From assembly GCF_024502345.1 (NCBI RefSeq), contig NZ_JALDNN010000001.1: DNA of 64,000 nt. One strand, given 5' to 3'. This DNA is from Escherichia coli. Its GTDB lineage: Bacteria > Pseudomonadota > Gammaproteobacteria > Enterobacterales > Enterobacteriaceae. A program made the translations under genes and the position numbers. How positions within the stretch are numbered: position 1 is the stretch's first letter; each line of letters starts with the position of its first letter. Shown here piece by piece: positions 1 to 9,598 of this stretch. Under the pieces are notes generated by a model, which made no database searches, had not been told where the DNA came from, and saw only the letters and a program-made list of their open reading frames with translations.

Positions 1-3000
1 CTGATGCTGCTCATGCTGTTCAGAGAGCACATCCAGCAGCATGGCGTGCGTTTCACGCACGTTCACGTTGAGGCGCACGCTGTTCACCTGACCAAACGAT
101 ACGTTCTGCAACCCCTGGTTGAGCATACGGATACGGTTCTGCTCGCGCTGAATGGTTTTGCGAATGATGTTCGCCACGCTGCGGGAACTGATCGCCAGTT
201 TCTGTTCACGGGAGGTTAATTCTTCGGTCAGACGGCTAAGTTCGATCTCCATCTGTTCGATAGCTTCCACCGGATCATCGGTACGAATAATATCCTGACG
301 AATACGTTCACGCAGATGCTGATAAACCGCCACGAAGAACTGAATTTTACGCTCCGGACGTTTCGGATCTTCCGACATGCGCAGCACGTCGCGCAGATGT
401 TCGTTATCCGCCACCGCCAGACGCAGCGCACCTAACGCCTTATCCGACATGGAACGCAAATCATCAGCGGAGAGATAAGCCAGCTCACGACGGTGTAAGC
501 GGCGCTCAACGCCGTTATCTTTCACCATGCGCATCACCGCACACCAGCCCGCTTTGGCGGTCACTACCTGCTCGCGCATCTCAAAGTAATCACGCTCCAG
601 CTTTCGCAGTTTGCGGGTCAGGTTGTCCATCTCCGCTTCGCAGAAGGTAAGCGCTTTTTCCAGTTGATTGCGGCGTGAACGGTTATTGCTCAGTTGCGCA
701 TGCAGCTCGTCACGGCGAATACGCGCCCGCTCTTCTGCCCCGCTATCAGCACGCACGCCGATATCCTGCAATTCACGTTGCAGATCGTTGAGTAGCTCTT
801 TTTTGGTGTCGTACGAACTTTTCAGCGAAGCCAGCACCTGGTTGTACTGACTCAACTGCGCTGCGTGACCGCGCAACGCTTCGCGAGCGCGGGTACGCTC
901 CGCTTCCGCCTGTTCCAGACGTTCACGCAGTTTTTCGTTGAGATCGTTGTTACCGCTAAGCATTTCTGCCGAGTCAGAATAGCTAAAGTGCGCACGACGC
1001 TGCACCACTTCCGTCAGGGCAAACGCCTGCTGACGGGCATCGCGCTGCATCTGCTGAGAGTACGCGTAATCTTCTTTTAACTGTTCGAACTGTTCCGGGT
1101 CGCTCTGCAATACCGAAACGATCGGTTCCAGTTTCGCCAGTTGATTGCCAAACTGCTGAACAAAACGCGCGGCTTCCTGGGCTTCATCCAGACGTTCGCG
1201 GATTTCATCGACGCGATCCGCCAGGCTGTCATCAGCCAACAGGTTGAGACGCGGCAGAATGCGGTTCAGCGCCGTAACGCCTTCTTTCGCCTGCTCAAAC
1301 TGAATACGCTGCTGCTGGTTATCATTTTCATGATTACTCAACGCCCGCTCCAGTTCGACGCGACGGCTGTTCAGTTGACGGATTTCTGCTTCCGGGTCAG
1401 ACTCAAACGCCACCGCCAGATGACTGCCGATAAAGCGGCTGAACGCCTGATGCAGACGCTGGGTTTTCTGTACATCAAAGGAGAGCGTGGCGAAGCGTTC
1501 GGAAAGCACTTCACGCTCGGCATGGAGGCTTTCAATACGGCTTTCACGCGCAGCACGACCAAACAGCGGCACTTCCGGGAAACGTGAATAACGCCACTGA
1601 CGATCGGCGATTTTCACCACTACCGCTTTTTCCAGCTCATCAACGCTGAACACGCTATCATCGAATGACTGCGGATCCCCTTCGATCAAATAGAGATCTT
1701 CCGGGCAATCGGTCAAGCCTTCCAGGTGTTCGGTTACCTGTGACAGATCTGGCACCACGATGGCGTGGCGTGACGGACCATACAGAGCCGAGAAGTATGG
1801 CGCATCTTCCAGGCTAACGTCGTCATAAATTTCTGACAGCAGCACACCACCAAAACGCTCTGCCAGCGCGTTCAGACGCTGATCTTCAGAGCCGCCAGGC
1901 TGGCTTAAACGTTCGATCTCTTCATCGACGGCGTTTTTGCGCGCGCCTACTTCATCGCGTTCAACAATCGCCTCGCGCTCACGCTCCAGCAACTGTTGCA
2001 GATATTCAGTGACGTCCTGGCTGGAGGAGAACTCTTCGCCGCACTGTTCACTCAACTGGTTGAGACTGTTTTGCGCTGCCAGCCAAACCGGTGCACGCTG
2101 CATCAAACTCTGAATGCGAGACTGCAGCTGTTCCTGCTCCTGGCGCAGTGCCATACGCTCTTCGCGGGCGTTAGACACGCTATCGGAAAGAGAGGCAATA
2201 CGCGCTTCCAGCTCCTGATGCAGGGCTTCCAGTTCATCGATATCAAAATTCTTGCCCTGACGTTTGCAGAAATCTGCCAGCAGACGCTCAGCTTCTTGCT
2301 GCTCGCGCAGACGCTGTTCCAGTTCACTTAAGCGCATCCGCAACGGTTGAACCTGCTCTGCCAGGTGACGCTGATCGACCCCTTCGCGCAGCAGTTCGCG
2401 GGCGACATCCCACGCCTCGTTACGCGCCAGCGGGCCGTTGATTGCCACCACCAGCTGATAAGCCTGCTCAAACTGGCTGTGCGCGGTTTGCGCCATGCTC
2501 ATTTTCTGCTCAAGAGAGAGCATTTTTTCAGTCGCTTCCTGCTCTTTCGCCTGGAAGGTTTCCAGCCATTCGGCGGCGCTGTCGGCGGTTAAGTCCGGCA
2601 GATGGCACAGTTCTTTGGCACGATTAAGTGCAGCAATCGCCTGGTTATACTGGATCGCGCGCGTTTGCTGGACGTCCAGCGCCTGCTGGTAGTCAGCAAG
2701 CTGGCTTTTCAGCTCGTCCACTTCCAGTTCGGCAGCTTCCGCACGAGCCTCATTCTCTTCCTGGCGTTCGATGGCTTCTGCCACCACTTCGTTTTGCTCT
2801 TCCAGACGGATCTGCAGCTCATCGAGATCCGCTTCGTAGCGTTCGATCTTCTCCTGCTGACGCAATGCGGTTTGCACCAGGTTCAGGTGATCGCTGGCCG
2901 CCTGATAATCCGCTTCCAGATCGCCTTCGGCACCGTTGTGCTCTGCCAGCTCACGCGCCATATCGACGTGTTTGTACTGCTCAGCCGCCAGTTGCTGACG

Positions 3001-5901: not shown

Positions 5902-6683
5902 ACTTTATCCTTGCTCTGCGGTTTGCGCGCGGTGACATGAATATAACGCCCCAGGGTAATATACGGTTCCTGACGGCAATAACGCGTTTCTAATTCAAGT
6001 AATGCTTCATAGCAGTCGCGCTGCTGGTGCTTCTCGCGCAGATAATCATGAAACACGCGAACGCCTGTCTTACCCATAATTTGCCAACCAGCTTCTTCCA
6101 GCCACAGATAAACCTGCGCCGGGTCGCGTGGATAATCTGGCGAAAGCGTCCGTTTTTTCTTTTTCGGCATTCCCGCCTGCACGTAATCAAAATTCCCGGC
6201 GACCATGTTATGCATCAACAAACCATGCGCATTGTAGAACATTAACGACAACACGCCGCCTGGACGCAACACTGACCACAGGGTCTGCAATACGCTGCGG
6301 GGATCAGCCACCCACTCGAGCACCGCATGGAACAATATCAGATCAACGGGCGTTTCCAAATGCGAAGCAACATCCTGAGCGGCGCAATGTATAAATTGCA
6401 TGTTGTCGCTCACACCTTTTGCTTCTGCCGCCTGTTTTGCGCGGTCGATCATCTGCGCAGAAAGATCGCATAAAATGACCTGATGCCCGCGCTCGGCCAT
6501 TTTGATTGCGGTCTGCCCTTCTCCACCGCCCGCATCCAGCACACGCAGTTTTTGCGGACCCATTTCCGCCAGCACGCGATCGAGATCCTGCCACAGAATA
6601 GCCTGTCGAAGCTGCCCTTTGGTGGTGCCGTAAATGTTACGGGAAAACTTTTCCGCAATATCATCAAAATTGCGATCCTGCAT
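5898..6683 (-). CDS. cmoM: SAM-dependent methyltransferase CmoM (SmtA), tRNA mcmo5U methylation
   Basis: ORF track 5898..6695 begins at a GTG. ATG at 6683 gives [13 protein letters not shown]... (261 aa). SAM-binding motif VLDAGGGEG present. Confidence 0.9.
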
Positions 6684-6818
6684 TGCTTTCTCCACCGGTT
6701 GGCTAAGACGTTTTCTGATAAAGACGCTATTTTGTCACAGCCACGGCGAGAATGAACCCGTCTGGTGTAATATCGCTGGCGATCCCTTGCTATATGGTTA
6801 AAAAAGGAACCAGAAAGG

Positions 6819-7598
6819 ATGCTTTTTACACTGAAAAAAGTGATTGGCAATATGTTGCTGCCACTTCCGCTGATGTTGTTAATTATTGGCGCTGGCCTGG
6901 CGCTGCTGTGGTTTAGCCGTTTTCAAAAAACCGGGAAGATTTTTATTAGCATTGGGTGGCTGTCACTCTTGTTATTGAGTTTGCAACCGGTAGCCGACCG
7001 CCTGCTGCGTCCCATCGAAAGCACCTATCCGACATGGAATAATTCGCAAAAAGTGGACTATATCGTGGTGCTCAGAGGTGGTTATACCTGGAACCCGCAG
7101 TGGGCACCGAGCTCTAATTTAATCAATAACAGTCTGCCACGCCTGAATGAGGGTATCCGTTTATGGCGCGAAAATCCGGGTTCAAAACTGATCTTCACGG
7201 GAGGCGTAGCAAAAACCAATACGGTGAGTACAGCGGAAGTAGGTGCCAGAGTTGCGCAATCGCTGGGCGTACCGCGCGAGCAAATTATCACCCTGGATTT
7301 GCCAAAAGATACCGAAGAAGAAGCTGCGGCAGTGAAACAGGCGATTGGTGACGCCCCTTTCCTGCTGGTGACCTCCGCATCACATCTGCCGCGGGCGATG
7401 ATCTTTTTTCAGCAGGAAGGGTTAAATCCGCTACCAGCCCCGGCGAATCAGTTGGCCATCGACTCGCCGCTTAATCCGTGGGAACGGGCAATCCCTTCTC
7501 CGGTCTGGCTGATGCATAGCGATCGTGTTGGCTATGAAACGCTTGGCCGCATCTGGCAGTGGCTGAAAGGTTCGTCAGGCGAGCCACGGCAAGAGTGA
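6819..7598 (+). CDS. elyC: Envelope biogenesis factor ElyC (YcbC), DUF218 family
   Basis: ORF track, 259 aa, with an N-terminal transmembrane segment. Divergent from cmoM; 3' end overlaps ycbJ on the opposite strand. Confidence 0.85.
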   Translation: MLFTLKKVIGNMLLPLPLMLLIIGAGLALLWFSRFQKTGKIFISIGWLSLLLLSLQPVADRLLRPIESTYPTWNNSQKVDYIVVLRGGYTWNPQWAPSSNLINNSLPRLNEGIRLWRENPGSKLIFTGGVAKTNTVSTAEVGARVAQSLGVPREQIITLDLPKDTEEEAAAVKQAIGDAPFLLVTSASHLPRAMIFFQQEGLNPLPAPANQLAIDSPLNPWERAIPSPVWLMHSDRVGYETLGRIWQWLKGSSGEPRQE

Positions 7599-8468
7599 TT
7601 TTGATGCCAGATCGAAGTTGCGCCGACTAAATCGTCCGGTATTAACCAGTTGCGCAACTTCATCCCATAACACATACAACCAACGCCGCCAGATGAACGA
7701 CTCCGCCACTGGCGCGCGTTGCAGGTAACTCCAGAGCAAATCTTCCGCCAGAGAATTATCCATTAGTCGGAACAGTTCGTATTCTCGCGGTGCCCAAAGC
7801 ATTAGTCCCGGCCCGACCATCGCCAGTAACTGATCGCTGCGCGAATCTTTCAGCATGCTGCGTAAACAGAAGTTACCGTGAATCAACACACAATTGTCGT
7901 TAAAGCCTTCAAATAATGCCGGGAGACATTCGCGAGTGCGAAACAGGATCCGCTTATCCTGCATCGTCAGACCGGTGTTATTGAACTGATTGAGCGTGGT
8001 CCATAGCACTTCAACATGTTGCCGGTACCATGAGGGCCAGAAATTTTCCTGAGTATTGTCGACCGCGCCGACGCAACCGCGACTGTCCTGACGGTGCCAG
8101 GCCAGTAAGGCTTCAACGATTTGGTCTTTAAGCTGTTCCCAGCGTTCTGGTGTTCGGGCTGGTGCCTCCACCGAAACACCACGCATCCGCTCCAGTAGCA
8201 GGACATCAGGGCCGGGGTGTTCTTCATGCGTCATCACACCATAAATAGTCGGCATACGGACAGTCCCACTTCTTGCCAGCATGGTGGTTTTCCATGCCAG
8301 TTGTCGGGCTTTTCCGGGCGTACTAAAGCTTCTTGCCATTAACGGCATTGGGTTTCCCTGGCTGTCATACAAAGCCCACAACGCCGTATCCGCTTTTTCA
8401 TTGACGCACTCAATACGACTGAGTTTTTCGCCCAGTAAATGGCTTAATTCGGCACGCAGCTGTTCCAT
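7575..8468 (-). CDS. ycbJ: Uncharacterised kinase-like protein YcbJ (aminoglycoside phosphotransferase fold)
   Basis: ORF track, 297 aa, MEQLRAELSHLLGEKLSRIECV.... Confidence 0.85.
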   Translation of the reverse strand: MEQLRAELSHLLGEKLSRIECVNEKADTALWALYDSQGNPMPLMARSFSTPGKARQLAWKTTMLARSGTVRMPTIYGVMTHEEHPGPDVLLLERMRGVSVEAPARTPERWEQLKDQIVEALLAWHRQDSRGCVGAVDNTQENFWPSWYRQHVEVLWTTLNQFNNTGLTMQDKRILFRTRECLPALFEGFNDNCVLIHGNFCLRSMLKDSRSDQLLAMVGPGLMLWAPREYELFRLMDNSLAEDLLWSYLQRAPVAESFIWRRWLYVLWDEVAQLVNTGRFSRRNFDLASKSLLPWLA

Positions 8469-8621
8469 TCAGATTACCCTCATAAAAGCTACTGCTTTCA
8501 TAATGAGCGCCAATATAAAAGATGTCACCTGAATGAGATCAATTGTTGAAAAGAAAAATTGAGGAAAATCGTAACGGTACGACACTCCTCCCAAAATTGG
8601 CTGGAGTGTCGTGAAGTGAAA

Positions 8622-9547
<926 letters not shown>

Positions 9548-9598
9548 AGTTCCTCCAGATGGATCGGGTTATGAATGCATAAATCTTATCATAATCAT

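Follow-up and report, generated by a model that had tools for sequence, protein, structure and literature searches.

The convergent genes elyC and ycbJ of Escherichia coli share the last 24 bp of their coding sequences, and the arrangement as a whole, from its origin and maintenance to its dispensability and transcription, is very likely explained as an ordinary, evolutionarily old tail-to-tail overlap of two real genes. In the 64,000-nucleotide stretch of DNA analyzed here (the window), elyC occupies 6819..7598 on the + strand and encodes a 259-aa envelope biogenesis factor (DUF218/PF02698), as judged from the ORF listing, RefSeq and homologues, and ycbJ occupies 7575..8468 on the - strand and encodes a 297-aa YcbJ family phosphotransferase (APH-like, PF01636), as judged from the ORF listing and RefSeq. 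The shared segment, 7575..7598, carries ElyC residues S253-E259 with the stop codon on the + strand and YcbJ residues S291-A297 with the stop codon on the - strand. An earlier note on this DNA had reported a 24-bp 3' overlap comprising the last eight codons of each gene; the overlap is real and its extent is right, but its content is seven sense codons plus a stop codon per gene. The two frames run in the same codon register (phase 123:321), with the elyC stop TGA (7596..7598, +) antisense to the ycbJ Ser291 codon TCA and the ycbJ stop TGA (7577..7575, -) antisense to the elyC Ser253 codon, also TCA. The last elyC codon outside the overlap is codon 252, TCG (7572..7574, +).

The same geometry is found in the MG1655 reference annotation (ycbJ 971752..972645, elyC 972622..973401) and in the RefSeq annotation of all E. 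coli records examined. Of 5426 complete E. coli genomes, 5425 match the 2 kb around the site at ≥98% identity, which places the window in the E. coli chromosome; the junction sequence is likewise present in 5425, and the 24-bp segment shows no variation among six sampled E. coli strains. Both products are conserved, with 1412 homologues for ElyC (PF02698) and 600 for YcbJ (PF01636) at E ≤ 1e-10 in each case, and the YcbJ homologues listed are all 297 aa long. What defines a convergent overlapping protein-coding pair is thus found here in full: two real genes, shared 3' ends and stop codons, and an overlap that recurs in orthologous loci. An annotation or sequencing artefact, in which one of the genes would end earlier in this strain, can be dismissed with near certainty. 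The existence of strains with a 251-aa ElyC speaks for such an artefact, but codon 252 of the window is TCG and the elyC frame has no stop before 7596, the sequence is identical in thousands of independent genomes, and stop codons allow no annotation choice. Since the position of a stop is fixed by the sequence, the ends of elyC and ycbJ are free of the ambiguity that attaches to start codons.

The overlap is already known from the reference annotation and the literature, and it is an ordinary one among dozens of tail-to-tail overlaps in the genome. Lillo and Krakauer (2007, PMC2174442) counted 58 convergent overlaps in E. coli, 32% of those longer than 4 bp being in phase 123:321, which fits an origin by stop-codon mutation. 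A 2025 preprint (10.1101/2025.02.11.637708) describes ycbJ as overlapping elyC in the opposite orientation and reports that deletion of ycbJ inactivates elyC. What is added here is descriptive, namely the depth of conservation, the asymmetric constraint on the shared bases, a frozen TCA codon and two natural reversals. The locus offers a clean small example of how convergent overlaps evolve, in which the YcbJ tail dictates the sequence, the elyC stop freezes one synonymous site and the overlap is undone by a single SNP or a REP insertion; on termination or antisense regulation it raises no new question beyond those of the genome-wide studies.

To follow the overlap across relatives, one genome per species was scanned with a YcbJ alignment, giving at least 80 Enterobacteriaceae loci in which both stop codons were located by script; the species are phylogenetically related, and the counts below are therefore of non-independent events. 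Among the matches listed, most of the ~75 scorable Enterobacteriaceae species have a 24-bp overlap, and at least 67 species combine it with an ungapped ElyC tail. These include members of Escherichia, Enterobacter, Kosakonia, Leclercia, Lelliottia, Trabulsiella and Atlantibacter, as well as Salmonella diarizonae, Citrobacter amalonaticus and Citrobacter sedlakii. Among the same matches, four loci (S. arizonae, Yokenella, L065 and L067) have a 21-bp overlap. The ycbJ stop has been lost in locus L081, where the overlap reaches 36 bp, and the YcbJ tail is extended likewise in L064; Escherichia sp. MOD1-EC7003 has zero overlap.

Further out, a Dryocola/Cedecea-like locus with 73% identical YcbJ retains a 21-bp overlap. 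In Plesiomonas shigelloides (YcbJ 42% identity) the genes are convergent across a 30-bp spacer and ElyC ends in ...LKGKH; in a relative with 33% identical YcbJ the two genes lie 107 bp apart, and in another at 44% identity (L092) elyC is absent between ycbJ and cmoM. Two YcbJ fragments of intermediate divergence (P0254 and P0262) were set aside as coming from frameshifted or fragmentary assemblies. Since distant relatives are convergent with spacers of 30-107 bp, convergent adjacency appears to predate the overlap, which would be a derived feature of the Enterobacteriaceae. The ancestral ycbJ and elyC would thus have converged across a short spacer; in the enterobacteriaceal ancestor the spacer and the original elyC stop would have been lost, and the elyC frame would have run into ycbJ antisense until it met the first available stop, the TGA opposite the TCA codon of Ser291. 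In phase 123:321 antisense stops arise only opposite TTA, CTA and TCA, which make up 2.75% of ycbJ codons, so that an ORF entering ycbJ antisense would average ~36 codons. An overlap of eight codons is by itself unremarkable, and the departure from chance lies in its conservation across species.

The alignments show the shared 24 bp to be governed mainly by YcbJ, with most residues of the ElyC tail following the synonymous drift of ycbJ. The YcbJ C-terminus KSLLPWLA is nearly invariant, with a mean amino-acid entropy of 0.14 bit over residues 290-296, compared with 0.77 bit for ElyC 253-259 (SGEPRQE), and L292, P294 and W295 of YcbJ are retained even at 33% identity. The variable ElyC residues, 255 (E/K/Q/D), 258 (Q/E/K/D/H/N) and 259 (E/Q/K), all lie opposite third codon positions of ycbJ, and ElyC S253 and P256 are fixed solely by lying opposite the ycbJ stop codon and Trp295. 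Up to ...WQWLKG251, ElyC itself is near-invariant. Codon 252, which follows, is the most variable position of all, with 11 amino-acid states, 2.57 bits and variation at all three bases, and is constrained by neither gene.

Constraint in the other direction is seen at a single serine. Among the matches listed, ycbJ Ser291 is encoded by TCA in 74 of 79 species, compared with 7.8% TCA at the other ycbJ serines. In three of the five exceptions the antisense stop is found one codon further on, opposite a Leu292 encoded by TTA or CTA; the other two are Citrobacter in which elyC no longer reaches ycbJ and codon 291 has become TCT or TCG by drift. As the exceptions are either compensated or free of overlap, the elyC stop freezes a synonymous site of ycbJ. 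This is the clearest reciprocal constraint shown by the comparison, with ycbJ having to keep TCA, or the adjacent TTA/CTA, for the termination of elyC.

A few other shared positions vary little. Among the matches listed, ycbJ ends with TGA in 76 of 76 species. At Ala297 (window 7578..7580) the third base, which also serves as the first position of the ElyC Gly254 codon, is C in 75 of 76, and that of Pro294 (coordinates given as 7584..7586) is only C or G across 76 species. The Ala297 and Pro294 third bases are fourfold-degenerate for ycbJ yet near-invariant, varying less than other sites of this degeneracy, and the YcbJ protein alone is insufficient to explain this. The cause may be selection acting on Gly254 and residue 257 of ElyC, or on the context of the stop codon. 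The low variability at Ala297, Pro294 and the ycbJ stop suggests that the ElyC tail is not wholly free and that some selection on the tail or on the RNA is possible. A stronger proposal, that the ElyC tail SSGEPRQE is functionally important and the 24 bp is truly dual-coding and selected by both proteins, could draw on the conservation of S253, P256 and nearly always G254, and on the first base of Gly254 being held despite its degeneracy for ycbJ. We consider it quite unlikely: the ycbJ stop and Trp295 dictate S253 and P256, residues 255, 258 and 259 switch freely between E, K, Q and D, and the tail is missing in 28 complete E. coli genomes and in Plesiomonas, with EH standing in its place in the Citrobacter freundii complex.

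The last of these points rests on two kinds of natural loss, both of which map at or adjoining elyC codon 252. In three protein clusters ElyC has a length of 251 aa and ends in ...WQWLKG; in their DNA a single TCG>TAG change at codon 252 makes the last base of elyC directly adjoin the ycbJ stop. With a 53-nt probe at 100% identity, the TAG allele is found in 28 of 5425 complete E. coli genomes, and TAG at codon 252 is also present in four loci (L006-L008 and L010). In the RefSeq annotation of strain 1190 a 251-aa elyC abuts ycbJ with zero overlap. A shorter, 35-nt TAG probe gave no match owing to a flanking SNP haplotype, and its wild-type control matched only 793 genomes. The earlier note had held that an earlier stop codon in other strains would make the overlap an annotation artefact; such a stop does exist, but it is a real nonsense polymorphism, and its presence in natural genomes shows that the overlapped ElyC tail is dispensable rather than that the overlap is spurious.

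The second kind of loss is seen in four species of the Citrobacter freundii complex (L013, L020, L025 and L036), in which palindromic inserts separate the genes by 35-117 bp. The insert, a REP/BIME-like palindromic repeat lying between ycbJ and elyC at 1364..1480 of locus L013, sits just downstream of elyC codon 252 and gives ElyC a new end, ...G(S/A/R)EH. It matches at least 40 unannotated places in nearly every E. coli genome, which argues for a repeat of REP/BIME type; we take this name from our recognition of the REP consensus. Since a nonsense SNP and a REP insertion have each removed the overlap in natural lineages, the overlap itself is dispensable.

On the transcriptional consequences, the reasoning of the earlier note holds: it had placed the terminators of each gene inside the coding sequence of its partner and the two mRNAs antisense to one another at their 3' ends, and Lillo and Krakauer (PMC2174442) had likewise argued that the terminators of convergent overlapping genes must sit within the partner's coding sequence. 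As an mRNA must include its own stop codon, each full-length transcript overlaps the partner in antisense by 24 nt or more, and its terminator falls within the partner's CDS. Transcript overlap of ycbJ-elyC in vivo is recorded in Table 1 of the ExcludonFinder study (NAR 2025, PMC12288877), in which the pair is among 165 convergent excludons of MG1655, called by an RNA-seq coverage criterion and detected in at least 50% of 58 MG1655 transcriptomes.

This listing raises the question of whether the overlap is a selected convergent excludon, in which antisense pairing and polymerase collision make ElyC and YcbJ expression mutually exclusive or coupled. Selection for such coupling would account for the retention of the overlap across the family, linking ElyC, which acts in envelope, ECA and peptidoglycan precursor homeostasis, with YcbJ, a putative kinase encoded beside kdsB and lpxK. 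The listing itself is in its favor, as are the higher synteny reported for excludon pairs (PMC12288877), the conservation of the overlap in most Enterobacteriaceae sampled, and the unusual invariance of several fourfold-degenerate sites within it. However, the listing records only overlapping RNA-seq coverage, which is guaranteed by the overlap of the coding sequences; conservation is largely accounted for by the YcbJ protein and the elyC stop codon; and a candidate hairpin nearby (described below) lacks covariation. Because the overlap has been lost in natural lineages, through the TAG allele and the REP insertion, and distant relatives are convergent with spacers of 30-107 bp, a selected excludon is possible but unsupported for this pair, and we regard it as unlikely. 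That the overlap is maintained as a regulatory coupling of ElyC and YcbJ levels through antisense pairing or polymerase collision at 7575..7598, with the invariant synonymous sites reflecting selection on the RNA and not on protein, is very unlikely. Most likely, the antisense overlap is a tolerated by-product between two weakly expressed genes and not a dedicated switch.

How the two 3' ends are formed was approached through terminator and structure predictions. A consensus scan and an inspection of T-runs found no intrinsic-terminator-like site at or near 7575..7598. The nearest terminator-like call, a weak one on the - strand (7701..7685), lies upstream of the ycbJ stop, and the sole run of four or more T's is a TTTT at 7599 with no hairpin before it. 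In the count of Lillo and Krakauer, a Rho-independent terminator was predicted for only 23 of the 116 genes of E. coli convergent overlaps (PMC2174442). No Rfam family was found in 6500..8800 at E ≤ 1.

A 10-bp inverted repeat, GAAGTTGCGC ... GCGCAACTTC, lies at 7613..7662, inside ycbJ and 15-64 nt past the elyC stop, with no U-tract. Owing to this repeat, the elyC-sense RNA over 7560..7760 (+) folds with z = -3.5 relative to shuffles; structure in the ycbJ-sense RNA past its own stop (7400..7610, -) is no better than chance (z = 0.03). Across at least 80 species, 72.6% of cells pair in the 7613..7662 stem and covariation is no better than in slid controls. The stem was accordingly rejected as a conserved RNA hairpin on both pairing and covariation, and a bidirectional intrinsic terminator at the junction was rejected as well, there being no called site and the stem having neither U-tract nor covariation. 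The complementarity of the stem is due for the most part to codons that are antisense-related, those for EVA and RNF; it is a possible pause hairpin.

A C-rich, G-poor elyC-sense stretch at 7599..7754 (+), antisense to ycbJ, is a candidate Rho loading region: in the first ~150 nt after the stop the C/G ratio in 78-nt windows is 1.5-2.1 (maximum 2.08), which places it between the 90th and 99th percentiles of the window as a whole (95th percentile 1.70, 99th 2.21). On the ycbJ-sense RNA the ratio is 1.44, in the first 78 nt after the stop only. Judged by composition, the elyC-sense stretch would be compatible with Rho loading on untranslated RNA.

Published data are available for the other strand. 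In Adams et al. (2021, PMC7815308, supplementary file 2), Rho termination is reported for a ycbJ-strand region at MG1655 972120 (+), which by conversion through the annotation lies at about 8100 on the - strand of the window, with a Rho score of 5.47 and p = 5e-12. Read counts upstream and downstream of 972120 are 135 and 18 in untreated cells and 192 and 140 with bicyclomycin. The region, which was called from 800-nt windows, lies ~525 nt upstream of the ycbJ stop; it may reflect transcription that stops prematurely within ycbJ and not the way the mRNA 3' end is made. Its position suggests that much ycbJ-strand transcription, perhaps kdsB read-through, stops early. The gene may be poorly translated or expressed under those conditions. 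The Rho regions of the same study hold no entry for the elyC strand, and its Term-seq 3' ends include none within 9722xx-9727xx (MG1655). Given that no intrinsic terminator was found and that a Rho signal has been published, on the ycbJ strand only, we infer that Rho is the most likely 3'-end mechanism. Rho would act on the RNA left untranslated past each stop codon, and head-on collision of polymerases may contribute; for convergent pairs, termination driven by collision has been described (bioRxiv 10.1101/2022.10.23.513370).

The chief consequence of the overlap lies in the reading of mutants. Since the 3' ends are shared, a clean deletion of either gene damages the other, and phenotypes assigned to ycbJ may be elyC phenotypes. 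In the Keio design, the final 21 nt of a deleted gene are reportedly left in place. A ycbJ deletion of this kind would presumably remove exactly the elyC stop (7596..7598) and an elyC deletion the ycbJ stop (7575..7577), so that each mutant would alter the C-terminus of the partner. A warning about misassigned ycbJ phenotypes has already been given in the 2025 preprint (10.1101/2025.02.11.637708).

Two observations were made in the neighborhood of the shared segment. Codon 86 of elyC (7074..7076) is AGA (Arg) in the window and Gly in the consensus, in five further E. coli strains and in 14 of 14 other aligned ElyC sequences; the residue falls in the conserved VVLGGGYTW motif of the DUF218 domain, and the identical sequence of 7050..7102 is found in 0 of 4517 matching complete E. 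coli genomes. Arg86 is possibly a private and damaging substitution, or possibly a sequencing error in the source. The second concerns the gene order around ycbJ in L090, L092, L094, L096 and the window (7575..9550). The genes ycaR-kdsB lie directly upstream wherever upstream DNA is present (relatives at 73%, 44% and 42% YcbJ identity), and lpxK is also present in both loci that reach that far. Downstream of ycbJ, cmoM and mukF are found in the loci at 73%, 44% and 33% identity and not in Plesiomonas. This synteny with LPS genes hints at an envelope-related role for the APH-like kinase YcbJ.

Among known systems, Ju and colleagues reportedly described bidirectional terminators between convergent genes in 2019. 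The present locus resembles bidirectional and collision terminators (bioRxiv 10.1101/2022.10.23.513370) in being convergent, in having no classical intrinsic terminator and in the hairpin-capable repeat nearby at 7613..7662, but this hairpin has no flanking U-tract or A-tract and is not conserved, and the collision model applies best to highly expressed pairs, whereas elyC and ycbJ both appear weakly expressed. With convergent excludons (PMC12288877) the pair shares its place in the list and an unavoidable 3' transcript overlap. Excludons, however, are defined by a reciprocal expression that transcriptional interference or cleavage by RNase III brings about, whereas ycbJ-elyC was assigned from RNA-seq coverage; and classical excludons overlap via long UTRs, whereas in this pair the coding sequences themselves force the overlap. 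The closest match is the class of convergent overlaps of Lillo and Krakauer (PMC2174442), with real genes on opposite strands, shared 3' ends, an overlap of <50 bp in phase 123:321, an origin that fits the loss of a stop or spacer and a subsequent run-on to the next stop, and an identical consequence for the terminators. From this class ycbJ/elyC, being one of the 58, shows no essential difference, and the detail added here consists of a conserved TCA providing the stop codon of the partner gene, together with the two natural reversals.
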